The notes under the pieces: generated by a model
The model's database searches: none
What the model saw: the letters and a program-made list of their open reading frames with translations, nothing else
What the model was told of the DNA's origin: nothing
Assembly (NCBI GenBank): GCA_050173015.1
Contig: JBFXLE010000005.1
Span: forward strand, 160,001 to 224,000
From: Calditrichaceae bacterium
GTDB taxonomy: Bacteria; Calditrichota; Calditrichia; Calditrichales; JBFXGD01
Direction: 5' to 3'
DNA: 64,000 bases
Translations under genes and position numbers: made by a program
In this document: positions 48,938-64,000 of the stretch, one piece after another
How the letters are laid out: every line of letters starts with the position of its first letter
How positions within the stretch are numbered: position 1 is the first letter of the stretch

Positions 48938-51900
48938 TTAATCTGTTCTTAACAACCGTTTAAACCAAAGAATGGAAATCACCGCCAATGCCAGCGATGA
49001 AAGAACAGCGCCCGGGATCGCTTCGGGAACAGCATTAAACACCCCCTGTTTGACTGAACCGAGAATCATCAATGACCCGCTCATCAATGGAATGAGCGCC
49101 GGTTGAAAACGGAATACGGTAATATACATGATAATAAAATATATACCTGAAATTATTCCCAGGGTCATCCAAAGGTTGAGATTGTCAATGGCAAATCCGC
49201 TGTAAATAAAGCCGAATAAGAAAAGCGCCAGGAGAGTAAGGATTTTTCTGCCGGACCATCCGTCAGAGAATTTATCAAGGGCGGTGAATACCAGCAAGAG
49301 CAGGGCGGTTTCGATAATATACCCGGCGATGGGCTGTAATGCCGCACCAAGAAGTGGGATTGAACCGGCGATCGTTTTATATTCCGCCCAGACCGGCTTG
49401 AGGACCGGACCGGTTAATGATCCCGCGGATGTTAGTAATCCCGCGAAAAGCAGCCCGATGGAGGCTCCAGCTAAAATCATGGTGAAGCTACCGCGGGCTT
49501 TTTGGGCTCGTTTCCATTTTTGCGTGAATCCGCCGATAAAGGCGGGGCCGGCCGCGAGAAGCAGGATCAAAATAACAGGCATAACGAGCGCGAGAATCAT
49601 CTGATTGAAATACGGTTCGGATGTCGAAAATTTAGCGACAGAACAATTCCATTCATTGATGATGTCAATAATCCCGATTCCAAGCAGAAAAGTGAGAATC
49701 CATAAAAAAACAGAGGGAGAAAATTTCTTTCTGCTCCAGGCAACGATAGCGCCGATTATACCGGCGAGGAAAATCAACACGGCAGACATGATGACGAGAC
49801 CCCTGATGAGTCTTGAAAGATTCGTTCTGTTTATTTCATCGCGTTCCCAGTCTTCCTTGACATATATATAACGATAACTGTCAGTCACCTCTTTGCCCGA
49901 AATGAGAACCGCGATCCGGGCCTCCCCGTTTTCGGTCGAATAAACCATCGTGTCCGCGAAAGTAATCGTCCAGTCAAGACGATTTTCAAGCCGTGAAGGT
50001 TCTACAGAGATCACTTTCAGGACTGAGGGGTCCATCCGGTGCAGATTGACGATTACAGAATCGGCTATTTTTTTTGCCTGTTCTTCTTCAAGAATCGCGC
50101 CGGTTCTTGCCTCGGGCAGGATATGGCGGAAACGGATATTGTTTTCATCCTGAATCAATATCTGATATTCCTCGGCTCTATCCGCCACATCACCTTCAAA
50201 ACGGATATAACGAATCTTCCAGTATGGCGGTGACAGGTAGTTGCCGATCAATCCGGCGTAGCTCTCAGACCCTTCTGTCTGCCAGATCATCCGGTCATCC
50301 GCGCCGTTGGGGGATTCAATACAGCTCAGCATCCTCCATTCTTTGGGTAACTGAATATTTCTTTCCTTCATAATTGTATCGGCAATTCGAATCGCCTCAG
50401 TTTTTTGAATATCCAAACGTGGCGCTTCGTTTTTGAAATTGGCGGTGAAAATCCAAAGAACAAGCCCGGCAATTCCGGCAAATATTAGGAAGTAATTGAT
50501 GTTTTTTCCCTGTGAAACTTCCTCTTTTTGGGGAGTCGGCACCGGTTTTTCTTTCAACGGATCCGGTTCCCATGATCCGTTAAGCTGTTCATCCCTTATT
50601 GTTGTCCATTTTTTGGATCTTAAGCGGGCAAACAGGATTACCCACAGCGGAACCAGCACGAGAATGAAAACCATCAGGCGGTCGGCCCAGATTCCGGGAG
50701 CGGTCGAAACAAATAAAGGAAGGGCGAACCAAACAACATCCACAGCGTAATGCAGAATAATACCCGGAAGCAACCCGAAGTACAGATAAACAAGACCGAA
50801 ACCGATAGAAGGGATAATCAGTTCCACTAGTCTGGCGTACGCCGGCTGCTGCGGATAATTGGCGTGAGCCGCCCCAAAAATCACCGCCTGGAGAATAAAC
50901 GCGGCGAATATCCAGGCTTTTCTGTGCCCGTATTTTTGACCGATCAGAGCGGCCCCGGCGATGGGAATCGCCCGGAACAGACATTCTTCCATAAAACCGG
51001 CCTGAAAAGAAATGGTTATGGATGACAGCCAGGGAAAATATGAGGCCAGTATATCGGGCTCAAATAAAGCCTCGGATGGCGACCACCAGCCAAGATACCG
51101 CGAGGCAAAAAAGTATAACCCGATATCGAAGGCAAAGAACAATCCAACCGCCAGATACCCGCCGAATGTCTGTCCCCAAACAACCGGCGAGCTTGCCGTG
51201 TCTTTTGACCAAATATTCCAGAACCGCAGATGGTTAGGAAAGGCTTTTCTTGTGAGACTTTCCGCCGCCATAAATGAAAGCGTAAAAAAGATTGTCAGTC
51301 CGATAAATGACACGAGCAAACCGACAATCTGCTGCATTACAAACCCTTGCGCGGAGAGGGCCGTGTCATATCTCATCCATGACAGCGGCCATCGGTTCAA
51401 AGAGTTTAATATTTGCAGCAGCGCGACAAAGATCCCCCAGAACAGAGGTTTTCGCCAGATAATCCATCTTTGCCGGATGAGAAAAAACAATCCGATGATC
51501 ATACCGCCCAAAAAGTAAAAAATGATCATTCCCACCAACGCGCCCGCGGAGATGGTTTCATTTGATGAACGCATTTCACTGTATCGTCTGGAGAAGGCTT
51601 CGGGTATTTTCACAAAATGCGTTAATTCGGTAAACTTATCACCCGATACGACCAGGCGCATGCGATAGTGGGCGTCACCGGTTTTAATATCGGCGCGTTC
51701 ATATACAAAGGTATGATCAACACGGCCGCCGGGGCGGACTTCCTTCGACGTTTCCACAAGATTATATACACTCAGATCAGTTTTTAGGAACAGCCGCGCG
51801 TTTTGTTCGGCGATCACCCGGGCGGAGTCCGGTATTAATGCCGCGCCCGGCGCCTTCTCCGAAAGCGTTTCGACAAAACCGTATGGTTCGCCTCCCGGTG

Positions 51901-52258
51901 TGAAGCGGATTTCCGTTTCATTTACTTCCGATTCTCTGTAATGACGAACATGCCATGTGTAAGGATAGTAGATTTTCTCCTCAAGGACGGCGCTGAATGC
52001 TTCCGCTCCCCCCGCTTCAAGCTCCACATAATTCTGAAATTTGTTGTCCAGGTCAAACGAAGCCGCCTGATCAAAATCAGTGGGTCCGAGATTTAGGATT
52101 CCGGAAAACTGTTCCGCGGCGCTCAGTGCCGTCTGCCTGTCCATCTGCAGATCCAGATTAACAAGCGGATAGGCCATAGGGAAAAACCGGTAGGTAAATA
52201 TGGCGCCTGCAATGGAAAAAATAGTAAGAATGATCCAGAAAGCGGGTTTTCTAAACAT
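48938..52258 (-). CDS. large CPBP-family intramembrane protease with duplicated extracytoplasmic domain
   Basis: EECLFR, FGAAH, HYAVD motifs in first half; many TM. Confidence 0.82.
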   Translation of the reverse strand: MFRKPAFWIILTIFSIAGAIFTYRFFPMAYPLVNLDLQMDRQTALSAAEQFSGILNLGPTDFDQAASFDLDNKFQNYVELEAGGAEAFSAVLEEKIYYPYTWHVRHYRESEVNETEIRFTPGGEPYGFVETLSEKAPGAALIPDSARVIAEQNARLFLKTDLSVYNLVETSKEVRPGGRVDHTFVYERADIKTGDAHYRMRLVVSGDKFTELTHFVKIPEAFSRRYSEMRSSNETISAGALVGMIIFYFLGGMIIGLFFLIRQRWIIWRKPLFWGIFVALLQILNSLNRWPLSWMRYDTALSAQGFVMQQIVGLLVSFIGLTIFFTLSFMAAESLTRKAFPNHLRFWNIWSKDTASSPVVWGQTFGGYLAVGLFFAFDIGLYFFASRYLGWWSPSEALFEPDILASYFPWLSSITISFQAGFMEECLFRAIPIAGAALIGQKYGHRKAWIFAAFILQAVIFGAAHANYPQQPAYARLVELIIPSIGFGLVYLYFGLLPGIILHYAVDVVWFALPLFVSTAPGIWADRLMVFILVLVPLWVILFARLRSKKWTTIRDEQLNGSWEPDPLKEKPVPTPQKEEVSQGKNINYFLIFAGIAGLVLWIFTANFKNEAPRLDIQKTEAIRIADTIMKERNIQLPKEWRMLSCIESPNGADDRMIWQTEGSESYAGLIGNYLSPPYWKIRYIRFEGDVADRAEEYQILIQDENNIRFRHILPEARTGAILEEEQAKKIADSVIVNLHRMDPSVLKVISVEPSRLENRLDWTITFADTMVYSTENGEARIAVLISGKEVTDSYRYIYVKEDWERDEINRTNLSRLIRGLVIMSAVLIFLAGIIGAIVAWSRKKFSPSVFLWILTFLLGIGIIDIINEWNCSVAKFSTSEPYFNQMILALVMPVILILLLAAGPAFIGGFTQKWKRAQKARGSFTMILAGASIGLLFAGLLTSAGSLTGPVLKPVWAEYKTIAGSIPLLGAALQPIAGYIIETALLLLVFTALDKFSDGWSGRKILTLLALFLFGFIYSGFAIDNLNLWMTLGIISGIYFIIMYITVFRFQPALIPLMSGSLMILGSVKQGVFNAVPEAIPGAVLSSLALAVISILWFKRLLRTD

Positions 52259-52557
52259 CTCATCCCCCAATTTTTTTTGAGAATGGATTTAAATATGATG
52301 AAGATTCGCCGGACTAAATGAACGGTTGTGTGAAAATATAAGCACGGGAGGCGTTCATAGGAAATATTAATAAATTAATTAATTCGGAAGGTTTGGCCGG
52401 ATCGCGACCAATTATTAATTATGATGAGACCTAAGATTATTCAACGGGCTTTGAAGCCGTAATCAGGAATTGAATATTATAAATCTTGTAATGAATAAAA
52501 GTGTATGATATTTTACAAAAGCTGAATAATTGAGACAGCTTTTGGTAAGGTTAGACT

Positions 52558-53907
52558 ATGAAAAACACAATTTCATGCCGCCAGAATGCATGGTATGGAG
52601 ACAATGAGATTTCTTACCGGTTCCCCGACAACTGGAAAATTACCGTATTTTCCCCTCAAGACAGGGCAAAGCTGAGTGATGATGAAATTTATACAAAGAT
52701 ACAAAATCCCCTGGGCTGTTTTCCCCTGATCAAACAATTGAAGCCGGGTATGAAAGTATTAATTATCAGCGATGATATAACCAGACCCACCCGTACAGAT
52801 GTCATCATTCCGATTCTTCTCAATATCCTGAAAAACGCCGGTATTCATTCCACTCATGTTTCTATATTGATCGGAACGGGCCTTCATTCGCTTATGGGTG
52901 ATCATGAGAAGATGCTTAAATTCGGCAAAGCAATAGTTGATAATTTTAAAATATATGACCACGATTATCGCGGAAAAAACATTTACGCGGGAAAAACAAG
53001 ACAGGGGACACCGGTTTTTATAAACAGACATGTTATGGAAAGCGATTTTATAATCGGTGTTGGCGGGATTTATCCTCATAATCCGGCCGGATTCGGAGGA
53101 GGAGCCAAGCTGATCCTGGGTGTCAGCGGGGAGAAAACAATCAAATATTTTCATCTGAGAAGAAAAGGCGTGGACGCCGGCGGAGCAGTTTCAAATGAAT
53201 TCAGACAGGATCTGCTTGAAGCTTCAAGGTTGGCGGGAATGAATTTTATCATCAATAACCTGGTTGATAAAAACAGAAATATAATCGATATCTTTGCCGG
53301 AGATGTTGATTCGGCTTATCATGCGGGTGTGGAAAAAGCGATGGATATTTTCGGTGTTCCGAGTCCCGCCGATCAATCGTTTGATTTAGTGGTGGCTGAC
53401 GCCTATCCCTTTGACAGTACATTTGCCTTTACCCGAAAAGGATGGTGGCCTATCCGTCAATGCGGGAGAAAAAGCTACAAACTTATTATTTCTTCTATCC
53501 CTAATGGAATAGGGAATCATCCGCTATTTCCGACGGTTCCGGTCCGATACCCAAAGATAATTGACGCGTATAATCAATACCTGACCTCCGGAATCAAAGA
53601 TTTTATCTTCAACTACTCCGTAAAATCCATTTACCGGGGAGGCCGAAACTTTGCGTCAGAAGGATTTCATAAGGTTAAGAATATGATTCGTCCGTCCGCG
53701 AAGGAAGCTCCGGCAGCCCGGAATCAGCCTCTGCCGGCGACACTGCTTCATGGTTTGGATAAAAATTTCTCAAATCAACCGTTACCGTATTCTCTGCGCT
53801 CAACAAATAATCTTAAGGAATTCACAGATCATTTGATATCCCAAACCGGCGACAGGGAATTAAAAGTGGGATTTTATCAAGCATCGTCTCTGACTTTTCC
53901 TGGATAG
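52558..53907 (+). CDS. LarA (nickel-pincer lactate racemase) family protein
   Basis: DITRPT, GTGLH, PHNPAGFGGGAK, downstream H. Confidence 0.85.
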   Translation: MKNTISCRQNAWYGDNEISYRFPDNWKITVFSPQDRAKLSDDEIYTKIQNPLGCFPLIKQLKPGMKVLIISDDITRPTRTDVIIPILLNILKNAGIHSTHVSILIGTGLHSLMGDHEKMLKFGKAIVDNFKIYDHDYRGKNIYAGKTRQGTPVFINRHVMESDFIIGVGGIYPHNPAGFGGGAKLILGVSGEKTIKYFHLRRKGVDAGGAVSNEFRQDLLEASRLAGMNFIINNLVDKNRNIIDIFAGDVDSAYHAGVEKAMDIFGVPSPADQSFDLVVADAYPFDSTFAFTRKGWWPIRQCGRKSYKLIISSIPNGIGNHPLFPTVPVRYPKIIDAYNQYLTSGIKDFIFNYSVKSIYRGGRNFASEGFHKVKNMIRPSAKEAPAARNQPLPATLLHGLDKNFSNQPLPYSLRSTNNLKEFTDHLISQTGDRELKVGFYQASSLTFPG

Positions 53908-54198
53908 CGCGATGGTTATTTCGGGACCGGGAACTACATTTTTTTTATAAAAACAGCACTTCTATAAAGGCTTTTTGTCATAAGCGCGTCAGCCGTTTCT
54001 TTGATGTGTAAGTTATGATCGGCTCATACCTATGTTTTGATTGGCTGAACCGTATGTTATAATCGGTTCATGCGTAGCAGACGATGGTGTTATCCGTTTA
54101 GGCCACAACGGTTATTTGAAATATTGACGCGGGATTACACGTTTATTGAAGATGTCGGCCATATCCGCGCCGGATTAAGTGATACTCAGGATGTAATT

Positions 54199-54471
54199 AT
54201 GATCATGTTTTACAGGCATAAAAACTGTTCCGAATGCGACGATATTCAGGACCGGCTCGATGAGCTGGTCATTGCATACGAGTCCGTCATACCGGGGGCG
54301 GAAGAGCGGCCGGAAATTCAAAACCTGCCTGTTTTAAAAGATGACGGTAAAAATTTTACCGGGATACAATCGATTTCTAAGCATATTGATGAATTAACGT
54401 CCTTTAAAGAGATTTGGGATAAATTTCAGGGCGATTCATGTTATTGCAATGACCGGGGCGAGGTCGAATAA
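54199..54471 (+). CDS. small glutaredoxin-like protein (CxxC, C-terminal CxC)
   Basis: CSEC near N-terminus, LPVLKDDG, GDSCYC; AGGA RBS before ATG 54199. Confidence 0.6.
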   Translation: MIMFYRHKNCSECDDIQDRLDELVIAYESVIPGAEERPEIQNLPVLKDDGKNFTGIQSISKHIDELTSFKEIWDKFQGDSCYCNDRGEVE

Positions 54472-54673
54472 TCCTGCTTTTTCATCATTTCTCATGTGAT
54501 TTTTAAACAAAACCTTACGTTCATCGTGTTTCAGTATCTGCGTATCTCAGAAAATTGGATTAATCAGGGAGTAACGCGATGCACGGCAGAAGAATTTATA
54601 TCTTCATATTTGTGTAATAATATATTAATTTAATCATAGCAAAGGCCAGTTTCACATAAGCTTGGGATCATTT

Positions 54674-57607
54674 ATGAAATCAAAAGTCCTCATTCCTCTT
54701 CTGCTTCTTTTTCAGTTTCTGTTTTTAGTTTTCAGTGTCAATCTTTTTTCGCAGTCAATTGAATCTGCCGAAATTACCGGATTAATACAGTCATTTAAAA
54801 AAGACGAACGCGGCCCCTATCAGGCGATCCGTTGGTTTTGTCCGGATGGCACCATCATTCCGCCCAAGGAAAGGTGTCCGGAGCCCGGCGGTATTCAGCA
54901 CGCTCTTCATAAAGATATTGTCACGCGAATCGCGAAAAATAACGGGATATACCTGGGACAGATTCTTGCCGGAGCGAAGTTTGAAGATGTCTTGGATGAA
55001 CTGAACCGGAACTCCAGATTAAAACAATATATGATGGAGAGATATCTTCAGCGCTCCGATGACGGCTGGATTTTTCGCAGAGCGCGTTATTACCGGGGCG
55101 CCATCCAGGTAGAAGATGAAGAATATTGGGGAGTGAATTTTCTAAAATGGCTCGTCTCCAGGGAAGATATTATTGATAAGCAATTCTATTTGTTGCGTCA
55201 GGCCGCAAAGGATATTCCGCATAAGGCCAATGATAATCACTGGAATAATATCCGGGATCTCTCCAAAACGCTTGGCGATTCACTGCCGTCATTTATGGAT
55301 TTGCGGGTGAAATTACACGGTCAGCCGGATATGGGAGATCTGGAACGGGTAAGAAATTTCAAAACACGAAACAAAAACAAAATTCCGGTGATGATGGATG
55401 AATTGCTGCAGAATCTGGAAAAGGAACTGGAACTGGCATTCAAACCGACTGATCTTCAGACACTCAGCGCATACGTTGAAAAATTACCATCATCTAATAT
55501 TCTATCCGTACGTACTAAAAAACTAATCACTGCTTACGGAAGAAAGAGCAGTCAGAATACGCCGGACAACCGAATAAAGGACATTGCTTCCCTACTGTGG
55601 GAGATCAGAGCCAATCTTCTTTCTGTGTCAAAGCCGGATCAACGTCTGGCCATCATCGATCTTTCAAACGAGCTCGAAACGATCCTTTTCAGCGAAATTC
55701 GTTTATGGAAGCCGGAAACCATCGGCGGGCTGCTTGAGAAAAATTATTATCTTACAAAAGCGGCGGCAGGATGCGGATTTCTTGAAAAATGGGAATGGGA
55801 ACAGATTGAGCAACTCCTATCGGTGTCCGGAAACGCTGAAGATATGAGTCTGGATGATTTCAGAAAAAAAAGCGAAACTTCAAGGCGAGCCGTCGAATGG
55901 AGCGCGGGAATGGTACGGGCTAATTTTGAACCGGTCGTTTCATTGTTCGATGCATTCGAGCCGCTTGCAAAAGGTTTTACGGATGACCGCATTCGCGGCT
56001 CTGTGCTTCTTCCTCTTGGAGAAGTCGCGGGCGATTTGTCAGACCGGTTGTCTGTCTTTGCAGGTCAGAGCAACAATGTAATGGGGATAAGTAATCAGAA
56101 TAAAATTACCGGTCTTAATCCGGGATTTGCTTTTGGGAAGCTGGAAGTTGTTCCCGGGGCGCCGGATGACATTCAGTTCGCGGCGGATAAAATTTATATA
56201 CTGATGCGACCGCCCGCGGATATGAAACCGGTAGCGGGAATTGCTACTGTTTCAGAAGGAAATCTGGTCTCGCATGTGCAGCTGCTGGCGCGGAATCTTG
56301 GAATTCCGAACGCGGTCTTGTCGGATCAGAATTTGGCCGATTTATCCGCTTATTCGGGGAAAGACGTGTTTTATGCGGTTTCACCGGGCGGCAGCGTGTT
56401 AATGAAACCGGCTGAAAAAATGACGGATAGGGAAAAAGCTCTTATTCAGATTAAAAAGAGGAAAGAAGAAAGAATTAAAGTTCCAACAGGGAAAATCAAT
56501 TTAAATCAGACCGATATTATAAGTCTGCGTAAGCTCAGGGCATCCGATTCGGGAAAGATCTGCGGCCCTAAAGCGGCAAATCTTGGTCAGTTGAAAAGTA
56601 TGTTCCCGCGGCAGGTGGTAGAGGGTCTGGTGATTCCATTCGGAATTTTCCGTCAGCACATGGATCAATTCATGCCGGGTAGTGAATTAACTTACTGGCA
56701 GTATTTACAGGAAACGTTTGAGAATGCATCCGGTGAGAATAAAACGGGAATGACAAATGACCAAATAGATTCAATGGTATTAAAGCGTCTCGAAGTTCTT
56801 CGTGAAGCGATCAGGAAAATTAAATTTTCACAGGAGTTTTTACTAAAGATGAAAGCCGGATTCACGGATGTTCTTGGCAGGGACATGGGCGGAGTACCGG
56901 TCTTTATCCGCAGTGACACCAATATGGAAGATTTAAAGGATTTTACGGGCGCGGGATTGAATCTGACGGTATTTAATGTGGTTGACGAAGAAAAAATTTT
57001 ACAGGCAATCCGCGACGTATGGGCTTCTCCGTTCACGGAACGGAGTTATAAATGGAGACAAAAATTTCTGCTTAATCCGGAAAATGTATATCCGTCTATT
57101 CTTATTATTCCCACCGTGGATGTTGAAAAATCGGGGGTGATGATAACGACCGGTGTCACCTCCGGGAATCCGGAGGATGTTACCATCGCGTTCAACCGCG
57201 GAGCCGGCGGGGCGGTGGAGGGTCAGGCGGCCGAATCGTATCTTCTGAGAAACGATGGCTCAAATCAACTATTGTCTCCTTCGCGAGAAACTCTCAGCAC
57301 AACGCTCCCGGCAACGGGCGGAACGGCAAAAGCAATCATGCCTTTGAACAAACCGGTGCTGGATAACAATGAACTAAGCATGCTTCGCGCTTTTGCCGGT
57401 GAGATCAAAAAGAAACTCCCGGGGACTCCCGGAATTGAATCAAAAGGGCCGTTTGATGTGGAGTTGGGATTTAAAGACGGGCAAATCTGGTTGTTTCAGG
57501 TACGGCCATTTGTGGAAAATAAAAACGCGCGATCTTCAGAGTATCTCCAGAAAATGGATCCGAAGATAAAAGATATCCGGATATCGCTAACCGATACTCT
57601 GAATTAG
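54674..57607 (+). CDS. exported PEP/pyruvate-binding-domain dikinase (N-terminal helical domain, phospho-His swivel, C-terminal ATP-grasp)
   Basis: Signal peptide MKSKVLIPLLLLFQFLFLVFSVNLFS-Q; VSHVQLLARNLGIP; GPKAANL, RSDTNMED, GAG, VWAS, SGV, DVE..FQVRP. Confidence 0.85.
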   Translation: MKSKVLIPLLLLFQFLFLVFSVNLFSQSIESAEITGLIQSFKKDERGPYQAIRWFCPDGTIIPPKERCPEPGGIQHALHKDIVTRIAKNNGIYLGQILAGAKFEDVLDELNRNSRLKQYMMERYLQRSDDGWIFRRARYYRGAIQVEDEEYWGVNFLKWLVSREDIIDKQFYLLRQAAKDIPHKANDNHWNNIRDLSKTLGDSLPSFMDLRVKLHGQPDMGDLERVRNFKTRNKNKIPVMMDELLQNLEKELELAFKPTDLQTLSAYVEKLPSSNILSVRTKKLITAYGRKSSQNTPDNRIKDIASLLWEIRANLLSVSKPDQRLAIIDLSNELETILFSEIRLWKPETIGGLLEKNYYLTKAAAGCGFLEKWEWEQIEQLLSVSGNAEDMSLDDFRKKSETSRRAVEWSAGMVRANFEPVVSLFDAFEPLAKGFTDDRIRGSVLLPLGEVAGDLSDRLSVFAGQSNNVMGISNQNKITGLNPGFAFGKLEVVPGAPDDIQFAADKIYILMRPPADMKPVAGIATVSEGNLVSHVQLLARNLGIPNAVLSDQNLADLSAYSGKDVFYAVSPGGSVLMKPAEKMTDREKALIQIKKRKEERIKVPTGKINLNQTDIISLRKLRASDSGKICGPKAANLGQLKSMFPRQVVEGLVIPFGIFRQHMDQFMPGSELTYWQYLQETFENASGENKTGMTNDQIDSMVLKRLEVLREAIRKIKFSQEFLLKMKAGFTDVLGRDMGGVPVFIRSDTNMEDLKDFTGAGLNLTVFNVVDEEKILQAIRDVWASPFTERSYKWRQKFLLNPENVYPSILIIPTVDVEKSGVMITTGVTSGNPEDVTIAFNRGAGGAVEGQAAESYLLRNDGSNQLLSPSRETLSTTLPATGGTAKAIMPLNKPVLDNNELSMLRAFAGEIKKKLPGTPGIESKGPFDVELGFKDGQIWLFQVRPFVENKNARSSEYLQKMDPKIKDIRISLTDTLN

Positions 57608-57641
57608 TGGTTTGTTTAATATTTGGGGAGAAACAGATCCA

Positions 57642-58889
57642 ATGAAAATAAAAATAGCGGCGTTACTTTTTTTTATGATCCTTTTTGACGGTCTTTCGGG
57701 TTACCCGATCGACGGATATCAATGGACAGGAATAAGACGCTTATTGAGATTAAGCCTGATGAGCGAGGGACAGATTAAAGGTACTTTGCCCCCACCCGGA
57801 GGCAGGAAGCCTTACTCGGAAATCGCTTTGAATCTTTTAAACGCGAAAGGTGACAGTCTTGATACGCTTCCGAAGGTAGATCAGGAATTACAGAAACGGA
57901 TTGACGCGCTGTTCCCGAATCGCGATGAAAGTTATTCACTGGCGCTTCTTGAAATCACCCCGGGTAAGCCGATGCGCTTTGCCAAACGACAGGCGGAAAA
58001 CAGATTCGCTCCCGGAAGTGTGGGAAAGCTGGCCATTTTAGCCGGACTGTTTACCGAATTACAAAAAATCTACCCGGATTCACCCGAAAAAAGAAAGGAA
58101 CTGCTGCGCGCCCGAATGGTCGTCGCGGATAAATGGATTCTCACAGATCATCATGAAGTACCATTTTTTAATCCGGAAACGAAGGCGGCATCCTGGAGAC
58201 CGATAAAAGAAGGGGATACATTTTCTCTGTATGAATGGGTAGATCACATGATCTCAGCCAGCGCGAATTCAGCGGCAAGCGTTGTCTGGAAAGAAGTTCT
58301 ATTGATGAGAGCATTCGGGAAAAATTACCCGGCGAGTCCGGAGTGGGAAAAACATTTTTTTGAAAAAACAACAAAAAGTGAACTCAGTGCCATAGCCATG
58401 TCAACGGTTAATGACCCGCTCAGGGCGATGGGGATTGAGCAGAATGAATGGCAGCTTGGCAGTTTTTTTACGCAAACAGGCAAAAAACTGGTTCCGGGCG
58501 GTAGTGGAAGCTACGGGACTCCCACGGCTTTGCTAAAATATCTTATCGCTTTGGAACGGGGAAAGATAGTGGATGAATGGTCAAGCCTGGAGATTAAAAG
58601 AATGATGTATATGACCGCGAAACGAATCCGCTATGCGTCAAGCCCGGCGTTAGCAGACGCGGCGGTCTATTTTAAATCGGGAAGCCAGTACCGCTGCAAA
58701 GTGGAACCTGATTTCAAGTGCGGTAAATATATGGGAAATGTTGAAAACTATATGAATTCGGTTGCCATTGTCGAGCATCCGGCCGGTCGTGTCTATCTTG
58801 TGGCGCTTATGTCAAATGTTTTAAAGAAAAACTCAGCGGTGGAACATCAGTCGCTGGCCACATTTATCGACAGGATCATTTCAAAATAA
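57642..58889 (+). CDS. exported serine hydrolase, class A beta-lactamase/PBP fold
   Basis: Signal peptide; SVGK (SxxK), SAN (SxN), KSG; GGAG RBS. Confidence 0.8.
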   Translation: MKIKIAALLFFMILFDGLSGYPIDGYQWTGIRRLLRLSLMSEGQIKGTLPPPGGRKPYSEIALNLLNAKGDSLDTLPKVDQELQKRIDALFPNRDESYSLALLEITPGKPMRFAKRQAENRFAPGSVGKLAILAGLFTELQKIYPDSPEKRKELLRARMVVADKWILTDHHEVPFFNPETKAASWRPIKEGDTFSLYEWVDHMISASANSAASVVWKEVLLMRAFGKNYPASPEWEKHFFEKTTKSELSAIAMSTVNDPLRAMGIEQNEWQLGSFFTQTGKKLVPGGSGSYGTPTALLKYLIALERGKIVDEWSSLEIKRMMYMTAKRIRYASSPALADAAVYFKSGSQYRCKVEPDFKCGKYMGNVENYMNSVAIVEHPAGRVYLVALMSNVLKKNSAVEHQSLATFIDRIISK

Positions 58890-58899
58890 ATGTGTTGTT

Positions 58900-61785
58900 T
58901 TAGCGGTCGACACCAATATGCTTCAGCGCGAAACCGGCCATTTTTCTGACTTTGGGATCCGGACTGTTCACCAATGATCCAATATAAGGAAGATATTTCT
59001 CATCTTTTAATTGACTGACAAGATACAAGGTACGGATTTGCAGTGTCGTGTCTTCGCTTGAAAGAAGCGTTGTAAGGCATTCGTGCTCAGACTTGATTTT
59101 TAATCCAAACTGCTCAAGCGTTTTATCGATAACAGAACTGATCATTGTCGTTTCAACGATCGGTATGATGATCTTTTTCAAATCGCTCTCCAGGACATTA
59201 TCCAAAAACTCAACCGCGTTGACACGGACATCCGGTTTGCTGCTGCTGATTCCACTGTACACATTCTCTATATCTTCAGGCGGATATTTTAATCCAAGCA
59301 GCCGGAATATTCTTTCCAGATTGTTGTCCAGGCGATCCTCTAAAGCCTTGATCAGCATATTTCTGGCTTCATGCAGTTTGGTTTGATTGGGATCAGATAA
59401 GTTCCCGGCACCGGAAATCGTCTCGGCTCGCACCTGTGAATAAAGAAACGCGAGAGTGTTAACATAATCGTTGGCTTCCGCGAAAATTCGGTTGGCGAGG
59501 TTGGGGACATGGAAATTCAGCGCGGGGGAATTCAGTCTCAGGTCGTATAAAGCATTGATGACTTCATAGCGGACGAGCGCGTCTTTTAACTGTAAATTTT
59601 TTACAAGAACATCTACCGCTTTTTGGTTGCGGAAATTGGCGATCAGAGCGGGAATACTCAATCGAATATTTCTCTCAACATACGGATTGTTTAAATGTTC
59701 ATTCAAAACATCAAGTATTTCCGGCCCAAACGCAAGGAGTGCTTCGTAGGTGTATTTCCATAATCTTTTCTTTTTTTGCATACGGATCAGAACGGGGATA
59801 AAGTCCATATTCTTGCTGGATCCGGCGGCTAATATCGCTGCTTTTAAAACGTCAGGATCGCTATCGCTCAATAAAATATGCAGATAGGGGTACAATTCGG
59901 GAATATCCGCCGCGCCAATGACCCTGGATGCCAGAGTTTTTAAAGATTTTGTATGGGATTTGTTTGTCTGAAGCCGCAAATCTTTCATCAATTCGTTTAC
60001 CGATTCTTTCACTCTGAATTGCTGCTTTAATTCGGGATTATTACGGCTCTCCCTTGCCGCGCACAGAAGGGCGGCGCTGCGAACGGTAATATCGGGAGAC
60101 TGCAGGAATGAAGACAGCTTTTCAATTCTTTGTCCGCCGGCCCTCTGAAACAGATAATGTATGGCCTCAGTTTTTATCTCTAAATCCGGGTCTTGGATAA
60201 GATTTTCGACTTCTGCGGAAAGATCCACATGTTTATAAAAATAGATATTTCTAAGTACTTCAAGTTTTATTTCTCCGGAAGAATGGTTCAGAAGTTTCTG
60301 AAAGCATGGAAGAAGACGGTCGTTTTGAATTGGCTTCACCATTTTAAGAACCTGGAGAATCTGAGATTCATTTTTTCCTTCAAGGATTTTGATGAATCCG
60401 CCAAATACAGACTCGTTTTGAATGTCGGGCAAATCTGAATTTGAGTTTATCTTATTGGATTCAATCTTTAAGCGGAAAGAATTGACATACTCTTTTCTAA
60501 TCCTGGTGACAAGATATATCCATAGAGAAAGCAATAAAATGATAATAAGACTGATCTGCCTGATGGAGAAGTCGAATCCGTACGTTAAAAAAATCAGAAG
60601 CAATCCGCCAATTCCTGTCGCGAAGCTATCTACAAAAACATCGATAAACGATTTTGCCTGATTTTTAATTTCCACCGGAATAGGCAGGGCGAGCAGTTCG
60701 ATTCCGGCCTTGTTGATGGAGTTTTTAAGACTGCCGTCCGTTATTTTGATAAAAACTCCCGCCCACAGCACGGGAGTGATAAAGATGGTTACCGCGCCGA
60801 TAAGAATTCCAACCGGCAGAAACAATAAAGAAGTACCCACTCCAAAAACGCCCACAACCCGGCGCGTGACAAACAGCTGAATCAGAAGAGAAGCGATATT
60901 CAGATTGGAAAGCCAGAATCCGAAGAAGGCGGTTAACTGATCCTCATTGGTGATTTCTCTGGCAGCGATGGCTCCAAACTGATACTCAATAAGTTTGGCG
61001 ACCAACACACCGGTTCCAACGATGCTGGCCAGATAAATAAGATGCTTTGACTGCCGGATTATACGGACCGGATGGACCGCCGTCACGGATACCGGATGCG
61101 CCCGGTATAATTTACGGTGTTCGGCGTTCCTAAAATAATCCTTCCATAAATTATTTGTGATTGGTATGCACAATAATAAAAAACCGATACAAATAAAGAT
61201 CAGATTTTCACTGCTGATGACAGGGGCAAGAAAATTGGTGAGATACCCGCCGAAAATCCCTCCGGCGATGGCGCCGGATCCTATGAATCCGAATAAGCGT
61301 TTCGCCTCACGGGCGTTAAATATCACATTCGCGAGTATCCAGAACTGAGAACTCGAGATGACGGCAAATATGGCGACAAACACATAAAAAATGTATATGA
61401 TCCAGCCGGGCAGCAAATTTAACTGCAGAAACGACCAGAACATAAATAAAAAAGCAATTGAAATTTTTAGTGTTTTTACAATTAAACGGTGCACAGGCGC
61501 TTTTTTAAGCAGTTCTGAATAAAGAGATGATATTCCGGCCGCAAACACGGCAACCAATATAAATACAAAGGGAAGCTGTTCAACGCCGAACCTGGTAAGG
61601 AACATTGAAATAACCACAGGTTTTACAATGAGCAGAGACGAGATGATCAGAAAAATATAAATCCACATCATCAGGGCTCGTCTTCCCTCCCCGTGTCTTA
61701 TATCAAAGGTCTCGTTAAGAATTTTTTCAACGATGTCAATGAATTTTACCCCGGCAACGCTGGAACCGCTGTTTGTGCTCACCAT
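58900..61785 (-). CDS. NTT/TLC (Npt1/Npt2-like) nucleotide translocase fused to HEAT repeats
   Basis: About 12 TM; QFWILAN..EAKRLFG, QAKSFIDVFVD; C-terminal HEAT repeats (DPDLEIKTEAI, DITVRSAAL, DPKVRKMA). Confidence 0.82.
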   Translation of the reverse strand: MVSTNSGSSVAGVKFIDIVEKILNETFDIRHGEGRRALMMWIYIFLIISSLLIVKPVVISMFLTRFGVEQLPFVFILVAVFAAGISSLYSELLKKAPVHRLIVKTLKISIAFLFMFWSFLQLNLLPGWIIYIFYVFVAIFAVISSSQFWILANVIFNAREAKRLFGFIGSGAIAGGIFGGYLTNFLAPVISSENLIFICIGFLLLCIPITNNLWKDYFRNAEHRKLYRAHPVSVTAVHPVRIIRQSKHLIYLASIVGTGVLVAKLIEYQFGAIAAREITNEDQLTAFFGFWLSNLNIASLLIQLFVTRRVVGVFGVGTSLLFLPVGILIGAVTIFITPVLWAGVFIKITDGSLKNSINKAGIELLALPIPVEIKNQAKSFIDVFVDSFATGIGGLLLIFLTYGFDFSIRQISLIIILLLSLWIYLVTRIRKEYVNSFRLKIESNKINSNSDLPDIQNESVFGGFIKILEGKNESQILQVLKMVKPIQNDRLLPCFQKLLNHSSGEIKLEVLRNIYFYKHVDLSAEVENLIQDPDLEIKTEAIHYLFQRAGGQRIEKLSSFLQSPDITVRSAALLCAARESRNNPELKQQFRVKESVNELMKDLRLQTNKSHTKSLKTLASRVIGAADIPELYPYLHILLSDSDPDVLKAAILAAGSSKNMDFIPVLIRMQKKKRLWKYTYEALLAFGPEILDVLNEHLNNPYVERNIRLSIPALIANFRNQKAVDVLVKNLQLKDALVRYEVINALYDLRLNSPALNFHVPNLANRIFAEANDYVNTLAFLYSQVRAETISGAGNLSDPNQTKLHEARNMLIKALEDRLDNNLERIFRLLGLKYPPEDIENVYSGISSSKPDVRVNAVEFLDNVLESDLKKIIIPIVETTMISSVIDKTLEQFGLKIKSEHECLTTLLSSEDTTLQIRTLYLVSQLKDEKYLPYIGSLVNSPDPKVRKMAGFALKHIGVDR

Positions 61786-61806
61786 AAATCCTGTTTTTTT
61801 ATAAGG

Positions 61807-62724
61807 TTAGACTTTTTTACCGGTTTTTAAAACCTTCTCCGCCGTCAACAACAAATCTCTAAGAATCGCCTCTCCGTGAGGATCTTCGACAAGTCCCACC
61901 AGTATATAACGCCGCCATTCCGGACCCCAGACCATTACAGAATCTGAATGCCAGTTCCGCCAGGTGCCTGATTTTCTGTATATCTTGGCATCCGGAACGA
62001 CTTCGTCCAGACTATGCACAAATTTATGATGAAGTTCAGGATCCGAAAGAAAATCCAGCATTTGGGCTGAGCGATCCCGGCTAACCAGTTTTCCGAACGC
62101 CAGTAAATAATAATAGCGGCAAACCTGTGTGGCGGTAGCGCCGTGACTTAGACCCATTAAAGGATCAGGATAGCGTTTTCCCAATTTCGCGTAACGTTTG
62201 CCAACCCACAATCCTCCCCCCAATTCCGGCGCGTATAACTGATACTCTGGATTCATAAGGACAGCCTGGATTTTTTTAAATCCGACCCGGTCAATCATTC
62301 TCGTTGCCGCCGAATTATCTGATTTACTGATCATGATACGCATATCTTGCAATACTTCAGGTGACTCTTCAAGCGTACCATCTTCAAGCGACTGCGATGC
62401 GCCCAACAGGATTGCCAGTTTTGGTAAACTTGCCGCATACATCATCAGATCGCCGTTAACTCTGGCAAACCTTACATGATGCGGGTCGCTGATGTCAACG
62501 AGGCCGACCGACATTTTCTTTTTATCGATCAGTCTGGCCCAGGTTTTATCTTTACGAAGCTGTTTTTCCAATTCAGCCTGAAAATCATTGTCAACCAGTT
62601 TCCTTAAAGGTTTGATTTCCTTGTCAGCGATAGAATAAGGGAGTGGTTCGTCTTTGTTGGTCTGAGTGAAGCCATGAGGAATGAACACCAAAAATGCAGT
62701 AATCAAAAGATAGAGTATTTTCAT
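61807..62724 (-). CDS. exported serine hydrolase, class A beta-lactamase/PBP fold
   Basis: Signal peptide; AASLPK (SxxK), SDN, KSG. Confidence 0.85.
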   Translation of the reverse strand: MKILYLLITAFLVFIPHGFTQTNKDEPLPYSIADKEIKPLRKLVDNDFQAELEKQLRKDKTWARLIDKKKMSVGLVDISDPHHVRFARVNGDLMMYAASLPKLAILLGASQSLEDGTLEESPEVLQDMRIMISKSDNSAATRMIDRVGFKKIQAVLMNPEYQLYAPELGGGLWVGKRYAKLGKRYPDPLMGLSHGATATQVCRYYYLLAFGKLVSRDRSAQMLDFLSDPELHHKFVHSLDEVVPDAKIYRKSGTWRNWHSDSVMVWGPEWRRYILVGLVEDPHGEAILRDLLLTAEKVLKTGKKV

Positions 62725-63038: not shown

Positions 63039-64000
63039 ATGTTTAAAAACAACAACATCAAACGAATCTTTATGACTGGCGCTACCGCGGCGCTGGTGCT
63101 TATGTCCGTTTCGATAGGTTTTTTCTGGATAACGGCCGAATTCCGTCAGTTTGAACAACAGTCGGAAGAGCTGGAAAAAACATACATTGAATCGCAAAAA
63201 AAAATGGTAAAGGATCAGGTCGAAAATGTCATTAACTATATTCATTATAACCGGGCGATCTACGAAAAAAACCTTCAGGATGATTTAAAACAGCGTGTTT
63301 ATCAGGCGCATGCCATAGCCTCCAATATTTACAACCAATATAAAGATCGGTATCCGGAAGCAGATTTAAAAAAAATGATCCTTGACGCTCTTAGGCCTGC
63401 CCGTTTTAACAACGGCCGGAGTTATTTTATTGTGACGGATCTTTACGGCATATCTCAGTTATATCCCCCGGAACCGTCAGTTGAAGGCACCAGCCTGGGA
63501 GAATGGGTTGATGCAGACGGGAAATATGTAACCAAAGAAATTATCGCGCTCTTAAAAAAGGAAGGAGAAACGTATCGAAAATATTTCTGGCACCGCCAGG
63601 ATGAAAACTCTGAAAAGACATATCCTAAGATAGGGTTTGTAAAAATCTTTAAGCCATTCAACTGGTTTATCGGCACCGGAGAATTTCTTGATAATGTCGA
63701 GAATGATATAAAGAAAGAAGTTCTGGAGCGAATATCCAGAATTAGTTATGATGAAAACGGTTATGTCTTTGTGAACACCTTTGATGGGATCGCTCTGATT
63801 ATTGACTCAGAAAAATACAAAGCCGGCGATAATGTCTGGGAATTGACGGATCCTAATGGTGTAAAAGTTGTACAGTTAGAGAGAAAAGCGGCCGAAAATC
63901 CTGAAGGAGGATTTATCCATTACTCCTGGGTAAAACCGTCAACCAGCCAATATTCACCAAAAATATCATTTATTAAAGCGGTAAATGACTGGAAATGGAT
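63039..64000 (+). CDS. Cache-domain sensor (histidine kinase/chemoreceptor-type), 3'-truncated
   Basis: Absent from ORF track (no stop in window): MFKNNNIKRIF..TM..; two Cache repeats (DADGKYV..YFW..PKIGFVK..WFIGTG; DPNGVKVV..YSWVKP..PKISFIK). Confidence 0.85.
   Translation, partial: MFKNNNIKRIFMTGATAALVLMSVSIGFFWITAEFRQFEQQSEELEKTYIESQKKMVKDQVENVINYIHYNRAIYEKNLQDDLKQRVYQAHAIASNIYNQYKDRYPEADLKKMILDALRPARFNNGRSYFIVTDLYGISQLYPPEPSVEGTSLGEWVDADGKYVTKEIIALLKKEGETYRKYFWHRQDENSEKTYPKIGFVKIFKPFNWFIGTGEFLDNVENDIKKEVLERISRISYDENGYVFVNTFDGIALIIDSEKYKAGDNVWELTDPNGVKVVQLERKAAENPEGGFIHYSWVKPSTSQYSPKISFIKAVNDWKW

Follow-up and report, generated by a model that had tools for sequence, protein, structure and literature searches.

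By common account the periplasm contains no ATP, and processes in the envelope are for that reason taken to run on energy passed on from the inner membrane. A group of four genes from a Calditrichaceae bacterium may put this view in question, as it combines a predicted exported dikinase having an intact ATP site with a carrier from the ATP/ADP transporter family and two further predicted exported enzymes of a penicillin-binding protein (PBP) fold. Where would such a dikinase obtain its nucleotide? We addressed this for the locus at 54674-62724 of a 64,000-nucleotide stretch of DNA (the window; positions 160,001 to 224,000 of contig JBFXLE010000005.1, assembly GCA_050173015.1, a genome of 4.3 Mb and 97.5% completeness), the numbering of which is used for all positions. 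An exported ATP-grasp/His-swivel enzyme that is co-inherited with a carrier of the ATP/ADP family would make the assumption of an ATP-free periplasm directly testable, and the module is carried by harmless marine bacteria that can be cultivated, with Formosa algae KMM 3553, Olleya namhaensis DSM 28881, Maribacter arenosus and Labilibaculum filiforme among the cultivable carriers. In our judgement the balance tips slightly towards a module in which the carrier supplies ATP for a periplasmic phosphotransfer step.

Gene layout, protein families and export signals

The locus consists of four open reading frames (ORFs) in two convergent pairs, with a dikinase and a serine hydrolase (BLA_A) on the forward strand facing an NTT-HEAT transporter and a second serine hydrolase (BLA_B) on the reverse strand, and the stop codons of BLA_A and the transporter are set apart by only 10 bp (58890-58899), an arrangement that agrees with an earlier sequence-only reading of the window. 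The dikinase gene (54674-57607, + strand) encodes 977 aa from its ATG within an ORF that opens at a TTG at 54662 (981 aa), and we take the ATG at 54674 to be the real start because a 90%-identical orthologue begins there (MKSKVLIPLL); dikinase residue numbers are those of the 981-aa ORF (P0001) and are thus counted from the TTG, 4 codons upstream of the ATG. BLA_A follows on the + strand (ORF 57612-58889, 425 aa, or 415 aa from the ATG at 57642), and the - strand carries the transporter (58900-61785, 961 aa) and BLA_B (61807-62724, 305 aa).

A search with the dikinase returned 846 homologues, the best 120 of which are full length at 52-98% identity. The sole Pfam match above cut-off is PPDK_N on residues 634-960 (E 3.2e-26, 92.8 bits against a cut-off of 27), which corresponds to the ATP-grasp nucleotide-binding domain (56561-57541, + strand) and matches chains of phosphoenolpyruvate (PEP) synthase and of rifampin-phosphotransferase type in the PDB (E 5e-15 to 1e-12). 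A further alignment, which is weak, brings residues 483-553 onto residues 384-457 of the PEP synthase 8a8e, the Ser-His pair included, and points to a swivel phosphohistidine domain (56108-56320, + strand) on which Pfam PEP-utilizers scores E 0.013 and 15.5 bits, under its cut-off of 23.1. His538, the histidine of this domain, lies in the motif EGNxVSHVQLLARNLGIPN and is invariant in 23/23 aligned rows of the first clade, to which the window protein belongs, and in 24/24 rows of a distant second clade. The motifs GPKAANLG, RSDTNMED, GAGLNLT and the C-terminal D.E..Q.RP are invariant among 23 full-length homologues of 52-62% identity, and the ATP-grasp motifs along with the swivel histidine are equally invariant in the 24 second-clade dikinases. 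By these two sequence-defined domains the protein belongs to the PEP-utilising dikinase superfamily (PEP synthase / pyruvate,phosphate dikinase (PPDK) / glucan,water dikinase (GWD)), with the domain order N-domain, swivel histidine and ATP-grasp. PEP synthase or PPDK proper was considered and ruled out, as no Pfam match to a PEP/pyruvate-binding TIM barrel was found in the dikinase, the domain order is different and the NCBIfam dikinase models, those for PEP synthase and RIF_Ptrans_rph included, remain far under cut-off (85.6 vs 598 bits and 56.8 vs 999 bits).

The N-domain (residues 32-482; 54755-56107, + strand), which presumably binds the acceptor, contains a Cys pair (C60/C72), which is invariant in the second clade and almost so in the first. 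Pfam at E<=1 gave nothing for residues 1-629 except the weak swivel match, and an AlphaFold2 (AF2) model of the N-domain from 57 sequences (pLDDT 87.5, pTM 0.84) is mostly helical. Foldseek with this model against the PDB found nothing at E<=0.001 (best 0.12), and a wide VIA-align search gave generic helical-bundle matches only, the best of which (Z 10.8 over 88 of 451 residues) is below the score at which VIA-align itself advises caution with helical proteins, the search bearing mainly on residues 230-327. A profile of the N-domain retrieved 685 cluster representatives at E<=1e-3 and 311 at E<=1e-30 from 1.84 billion proteins; among the 150 matches listed the domain starts about 25-80 residues in, full-length proteins have about 920-1040 aa and no other architecture holding the domain was seen, shorter rows being possibly fragments. 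The best ESM Atlas matches (0.85 and 0.76) are to clusters in which a minority carry PEP-utilizers and serve as leads only. Carbohydrate-binding modules (CBM45, CBM20) were sought in the N-terminal part without a Pfam match, and the model is devoid of a CBM-like beta sandwich.

Both serine hydrolases match Pfam Beta-lactamase2 (BLA_A at E 1.9e-7; BLA_B at E 2.6e-16 and 60.1 bits against a cut-off of 22) and keep the catalytic motifs of that fold, with S126/K129 (SxxK), S207/N209 (SxN) and K345-S-G invariant in 36 aligned rows for BLA_A, which also has an invariant Cys pair downstream of KSG, and S99/K102, S135/N137 and K251-S-G invariant in 33 aligned rows for BLA_B. PDB sequence searches with either protein, as a single sequence and as a profile, gave 0 matches and NCBIfam had no match for either. 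The fold was examined by structure model for BLA_A and by Pfam only for BLA_B. The AF2 model of BLA_A (pLDDT 92.2) finds PBP-A as its best Foldseek match (2jbf/2j8y/2j7v, E ~1e-10, TMt 0.72-0.75), and over PBP-A and the class A beta-lactamases together TMt is 0.69-0.76 at 12-18% identity, with PBP-A, a cyanobacterial DD-peptidase, barely ahead of the lactamases. BLA_A and BLA_B are thus penicillin-recognising serine enzymes of the class A beta-lactamase/PBP-A branch. A complex prediction for dikinase residues 32-600 with mature BLA_A returned 0.00 with its controls unfolded and counts neither way.

The transporter begins with a transmembrane (TM) domain (residues 1-445; 60451-61785, - strand), assigned to the NTT/TLC type through its family, and ends in a HEAT-repeat domain of about 515 aa (58900-60450, - strand), which matches Pfam HEAT_2 (E 6.2e-27, 94.1 bits) and, in the PDB, alphaRep/HEAT chains. 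By crude hydropathy there are about 12 TM segments ahead of the HEAT part, which would therefore be cytoplasmic by analogy with the 12-TM topology of the major facilitator superfamily (MFS). Pfam TLC (PF03219) is matched by 20/26 scanned orthologues at E<=0.01 (best 7.3e-12), and many orthologues bear precomputed TLC matches or the names Npt1/Npt2. A profile of the TM domain searched against 177,635 PDB sequences found exactly two distinct proteins at E<=0.01, AtNTT1 (9j3j, 6.3e-14) and 9j3n (3e-13), over about 310 of 423 positions and with the common motifs FW..AN....EAK and K..IDV. The window genome has no second NTT-type domain.

Export was judged from the N-termini of complete orthologues, scored as signal-like from crude hydropathy instead of with SignalP. 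The putative signal peptide of the dikinase, MKSKVLIPLLLLFQFLFLVFSVNLFS/QS, occupies 54674-54754 (+ strand), its cleavage point being presumed. Signal-like starts are present in 74/78 first-clade and 65/73 second-clade dikinases, in 66/68 and 41/45 BLA_A orthologues and in 51/53 and 26/32 BLA_B orthologues respectively, and some first-clade BLA_B proteins carry a lipobox. The signal ends in A/Q or S/Q in many first-clade proteins, which fits the habit of Bacteroidota signal peptides to have a glutamine after the cleavage site. Many second-clade proteins have classical AXA sites (e.g. VDA/YPLDGY, ALA/QE), in many of the dikinases as AXA/Q, and those of many second-clade BLA_A abut the conserved mature start YP(I/L)DGY. 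The Sec-type signals that had been read from the window for the dikinase and both hydrolases are therefore, by hydropathy, conserved in two clades, and export is further supported by the Cys pairs in the dikinase N-domain and in BLA_A and by a partner fold typical of exported enzymes.

A very improbable alternative is that the enzymes are not exported at all, with a hydrophobic start that acts as an anchor or stems from faulty annotation, a cytoplasmic dikinase that works next to the HEAT domain and a carrier that imports its substrate. It draws on the reliance of the export call on hydropathy and motifs only, and on HEAT being a protein-binding fold on the cytoplasmic side of the carrier. It would leave unaccounted for a positive N-terminus, hydrophobic core and AXA or A/Q sites that have been kept in two deeply split clades, the conserved Cys pairs, and partners which have an exported-enzyme fold, signals of their own and in some cases lipoboxes; the HEAT domain, moreover, is missing from most of the second clade.

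Conservation of the module across phyla

A genome scan with the dikinase gave at least 588 loci and our first-clade counts refer to the best 80 of these, which come from Calditrichota, KSB1, several orders of Bacteroidota, Ignavibacteriales, Desulfobacterales and Rhodothermia. The tblastn counts for these loci are 80 (dikinase), 72 (BLA_A), 60 (HEAT part), 57 (TM part) and 56 (BLA_B). All four genes stand together in 49 of the 56 loci that have at least 6 kb of downstream flank, and a further two hold three genes with the fourth at the locus edge. The order dikinase and BLA_A convergent on transporter and BLA_B is nearly universal (two loci are entirely co-directional and one has divergent pairs), and the module proteins keep 45-70% identity across distant phyla. 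Clustering of all ORFs of the 80 loci yielded no fifth conserved family, the intermediate ORF 'families' being short ORFs inside the four module genes as judged from the example members checked. Where loci are split, the partners are mostly found elsewhere in the genome: in each of the five genomes whose locus is split, genes for the transporter (41-49% identity) and BLA_B are present at another place, and BLA_A was found in 4/5 genomes with dikinase-only loci.

Presence and absence were assessed in 251 Bacteroidota genomes drawn evenly, for which no p-value is given, related genomes not being independent. Dikinase occurs in 5/251 genomes. These 5 also have BLA_A and BLA_B, for neither of which the remaining 246 gave a match at E<=1e-6, and they supply the five top-ranking transporter matches (E<=1.3e-149), which lie on the same contigs and beside the dikinase; another 14 genomes have only distant transporter relatives of 21-32% identity. 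The predicted co-occurrence of the dikinase with TLC+HEAT and Beta-lactamase2 genes is thereby seen as joint inheritance of all four. The distribution of the dikinase is patchy, as of the relatives from the window's own order only those of the same genus have it.

A second dikinase clade has many full-length members at 31-36% identity (representative search), and in 80 metagenome loci of this clade BLA_A was found in 59, BLA_B in 45, an NTT-like gene in 30 and HEAT in 7. All three partners are present in 14 of the 25 second-clade loci with at least 6 kb downstream; the remaining 11 have BLA_A and NTT (2), BLA_A and BLA_B (4), BLA_A only (3), BLA_B only (1) or none (1). The recurring families are again just these four. 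Gene clustering, noted earlier for the window alone, is accordingly conserved across phyla, in 49/56 first-clade loci and in 14/25 of the distant second clade. The carriers of the second clade are mostly stand-alone proteins of 420-480 aa, and 10/10 of those scanned pass the Pfam TLC cut-off (5.8e-22 to 1.6e-4). Second-clade modules can thus do without HEAT repeats, and what is conserved beside the dikinase is the NTT part and not the NTT-HEAT fusion that was put forward from the window.

A quick tree of 53 TM domains, which includes 13/54 first-clade rows and all second-set rows of at least 400 aa, was rooted at its midpoint and has SH-aLRT values as its only support; its branches are long, and its outgroup does not include a characterised NTT. 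In this tree the dikinase-linked carriers of both clades share one side of a branch with 96% SH-aLRT support, nine other NTT-HEAT relatives are on the opposite side and the first-clade NTT-HEATs form a 99% group.

Several single loci show variant carriers. One dikinase-linked carrier is an NTT-HEAT-cNMP fusion (L113:15467-18670), and L138 and L178 each have two NTT genes in tandem whose copies fall in different tree groups. In one first-clade cluster, from a Desulfobacterales metagenome-assembled genome (MAG), a 477-aa HEAT-less carrier of 26% identity, with no Pfam match, replaces NTT-HEAT (L025:5524-6957) and groups with the second-clade carriers in the quick tree. Two NTT-HEATs without a dikinase, 31-32% identical to that of the window and sister to the dikinase-linked NTT-HEATs in the quick tree, are part of an apparent operon that also encodes an Omp85-superfamily protein, a protein of 568 aa with no Pfam match and a calcineurin-like metallophosphoesterase (L093:6940-13830 in G148:C3 and L095:8646-15512 in G256:C3), which may be another envelope system using such a carrier. 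Among the other genes, BLA_B is duplicated in tandem in a Lutibacter MAG (L073:13512-15413), and the NTT-HEAT of L027 (15527-18374) and the BLA_A of L049 (12835-14107) are each split into two overlapping ORFs, possibly by a frameshift or an assembly error. Where the dikinase is apart from the carrier, genes for other membrane transporters are directly upstream of it in four loci, with TerC and CorA in L017 (3745-6466) and L016 (7214-9737, the latter by cluster membership), TerC alone in L047 (8843-9793) and EamA in L050 (8968-9918); these may serve to supply metal to an exported Mg/Mn enzyme or may be there by chance.

A HAD-IIIB acid phosphatase (Acid_phosphat_B, E 6e-42), often with a lipobox, is located in or adjoining 10/80 second-clade loci (L121, L138, L140, L159, L160, L163, L164, L166, L172 and L178) and directly adjoins the NTT gene in L159, L160 and L172. 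The window genome has one copy of such a phosphatase, on another contig. The enzyme could recycle AMP or strip phosphate placed by the dikinase.

The breadth of this conservation bears on a further explanation, namely that the module inactivates antibiotics or xenobiotics, with the exported dikinase phosphorylating a cell-wall-active or other compound and the beta-lactamase-fold enzymes hydrolysing that compound or a related one. The matches of the ATP-grasp part to rifampin-phosphotransferase-type chains (5hv1, 5fbs and others, E ~1e-12), the NCBIfam RIF_Ptrans_rph match at 1.4e-15, though far below its cut-off, and the class A beta-lactamase fold and motifs of BLA_A and BLA_B all speak for this. 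The domain order is unlike that of the phosphotransferase, however, with the histidine ahead of the ATP-grasp, and the N-domain has no solved relative. Resistance by inactivation also sits poorly with 45-70% identity in all four proteins across distant phyla, with the absence of matches at E<=1e-20 in 72,556 plasmid records, with the lack of any mobile-element genes recurring beside the module in 80 first-clade and 80 second-clade loci, and with a best structural match of BLA_A to the DD-peptidase PBP-A, if barely ahead of the lactamases. We therefore regard inactivation as improbable.

The genes that flank the module in the window do not share its conservation. Their products are a membrane protein of 1110 aa that has an Rce1-like CAAX protease domain (48938-52270, - strand), a LarA-type lactate racemase N-domain protein (52558-53907, + strand), a 133-aa ORF without a family (54070-54471, + strand) and a dCache_2 sensor truncated by the window end (63039-63998, + strand). 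Promoter-like and terminator-like matches at the locus are at background (19 vs 16.6 expected and 12 vs 9.7 expected, respectively), and a PADLOC scan of the module gave only a weak HEAT match.

Nucleotide supply and the direction of transport

With an intact ATP site on an enzyme bearing an export signal, a co-inherited carrier whose only relatives of known structure transport ATP and ADP, and two PBP-type enzymes likewise bearing export signals, the simplest reading is that the carrier provides the nucleotide outside. The NTT-type carrier would pass cytoplasmic ATP into the periplasm, probably in exchange for returning AMP, ADP or phosphate, and the membrane potential would favour the exit of ATP, an exchange of ATP4- for AMP2- or ADP3- being pushed outward as in mitochondria. 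The Sec-exported dikinase would then take up ATP at its C-terminal ATP-grasp domain and transfer the beta-phosphate to His538, releasing AMP and Pi, after which the swivel domain would bring the phosphate to the N-domain for transfer onto an envelope substrate; this chemistry is proposed by analogy with PEP synthase and GWD. Both exported serine enzymes would process this substrate as well, either ahead of its phosphorylation or following it. Our guess for the substrate is a peptidoglycan-derived peptide ending in D-Ala, or a glycan bearing that peptide. This scheme follows in outline the interpretation offered from the window alone, in which the translocase feeds ATP to, or recovers nucleotide from, an exported dikinase; the clustering, the co-inheritance, the export signals and the NTT family lend it support, and the cargo and direction of transport, the activity of the dikinase outside the cytoplasm and its substrate, for which a glycan, a peptidoglycan fragment or an antibiotic had been suggested, stay at the level of proposal.

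If the carrier instead works inward, it would bring in external nucleotides, the nucleotide that remains after the dikinase reaction or the phosphorylated product, and the dikinase would draw its ATP from another source such as leakage or lysed neighbours. This salvage or uptake role has in its favour that those NTTs which have been characterised work as importers (Major et al. 2017, PMC5381601, and a 2026 preprint), and the lipoprotein HAD-IIIB phosphatase at 10/80 second-clade loci fits nucleotide turnover as well as it fits export. Uptake would, however, leave an invariant ATP-grasp domain without a dependable periplasmic donor, the strict co-inheritance of carrier and dikinase exceeds the needs of a general salvage carrier, and the genomes are those of free-living organisms of 4-8 Mb and not of energy parasites. 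On balance salvage appears unlikely, if less so than antibiotic inactivation.

Import would also follow from a reversal of the chemistry, with the periplasmic dikinase forming ATP from AMP, phosphate and an external energy-rich phospho-compound and the carrier bringing that ATP in. Import of ATP is what NTTs do, and PPDK is reported to be ATP-forming in some organisms. This reading nevertheless runs into the energetics of the enzyme class. Water dikinase chemistry is strongly downhill to AMP and Pi with any donor that falls short of PEP in energy, and we know of no suitable external donor of this kind; the two serine enzymes would furthermore be given no role. We hold ATP formation in the periplasm to be highly unlikely.

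Supply of ATP by the carrier, the reading that we favour, has a number of observations weighing against it. With regard to the genes, 3/56 flanked first-clade loci have only the dikinase and BLA_A and 2/56 only the dikinase within 10 kb, no BLA_A was found in genome G301, 9/25 flanked second-clade loci have no NTT within reach, and three carriers without a nearby dikinase are placed on the dikinase-linked side of the 96% branch, two of them in the Omp85/metallophosphoesterase operon, so that the carrier type is not exclusive to the module. With regard to the proteins, the window transporter itself has no Pfam TLC match even at E<=1 and gives only MFS_1 (E 0.0022), so that its earlier assignment to NTT/TLC stands at the level of the family profile (20/26 orthologues, 9j3j/9j3n and 10/10 second-clade carriers) and not for the window protein against that model; even then, resemblance to a family leaves the cargo of the carrier unfixed, and the signal peptides are called by hydropathy alone. 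As to physiology, no characterised NTT is known to work other than as an importer, and a 2026 preprint calls the mitochondrial ADP/ATP carrier (AAC) the only known ATP exporter. Being of about 500 Da, ATP should leak through porins, which would make a free periplasmic pool costly. Finally, we lean to a peptidoglycan-derived substrate because of the fold of the two hydrolases only.

A more complete picture, which we put forward tentatively and consider distinctly less probable than the supply of ATP itself, is a periplasmic ATP-fuelled cycle used in many phyla, in which an NTT carrier exports ATP, a GWD-like enzyme phosphorylates peptidoglycan or another envelope polymer, PBP-like enzymes cut or re-link it and a lipoprotein phosphatase resets the system in some lineages. 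Were this so, the carrier would be the first bacterial ATP exporter and the cycle would mirror the phosphorylation of starch in plastids. The co-inherited module as such would offer a first role for some of the NTT and NTT-HEAT proteins that free-living bacteria possess without explanation, and would hint at a phosphorylated component of the envelope on which two new branches of penicillin-binding enzymes act.

Comparison with known systems

Literature searches brought up a 2017 survey of NTT proteins and two papers that mention NTT-HEAT, and nothing on the module or on a secreted or exported dikinase, to the extent that the sources were accessible; the supplements of the survey may list these proteins. 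According to that survey (Major, Embley and Williams 2017, PMC5381601), NTT-HEAT fusions are monophyletic, widespread in free-living bacteria and of unexplained function. The window transporter is like these fusions in having a TLC-type domain followed by C-terminal HEAT repeats; it differs in that the accessible part of the paper connects the fusions with neither a dikinase nor exported enzymes, whereas here one sub-clade is tied to a module and the HEAT domain is sometimes missing. Of the plastid and chlamydial ATP/ADP carriers with a solved structure, AtNTT1 (9j3j, a chloroplast ADP,ATP carrier) and the second ADP,ATP carrier 9j3n resemble the module carrier in their shared motifs at low identity, and these known carriers import ATP.

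On the side of the hydrolases, PBP-A from Thermosynechococcus and the class A beta-lactamases PER, TLA and CTX-M are like BLA_A in fold and in the SxxK, SxN and KSG motifs, but BLA_A has about 140 extra residues, an N-terminal YPIDGY segment and a Cys-bridged loop past KSG. By sequence, PEP synthase and rifampin phosphotransferase are closest to the dikinase, with the ATP-grasp and the swivel histidine motif in common. In comparison with both, the module dikinase is circularly permuted, has neither the TIM barrel nor the rifampin-binding domain and carries a putative signal peptide.

In domain order the nearest system is that of the plastid alpha-glucan,water and phosphoglucan,water dikinases (GWD and PWD), in which an acceptor-binding N-terminal part is followed by the His domain and a C-terminal ATP-grasp domain. 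In the plastid, hydrolases likewise act on the phosphorylated substrate and an NTT carrier brings ATP into the compartment, and the phosphatase gene near some module loci recalls the starch phosphatases which belong to the plastid starch cycle. The module differs in that its dikinase is without CBM45 or any other CBM and has a helical N-domain with no solved relative, and no GWD chain is among the PDB sequence matches of the dikinase at E<=0.01. The partners are enzymes of a DD-peptidase/beta-lactamase fold and not amylases, and the compartment would be the periplasm, so that the carrier would need to export. As the carbohydrate-binding modules are missing, we take the starch cycle to be the closest working analogy for the module and not a family assignment.

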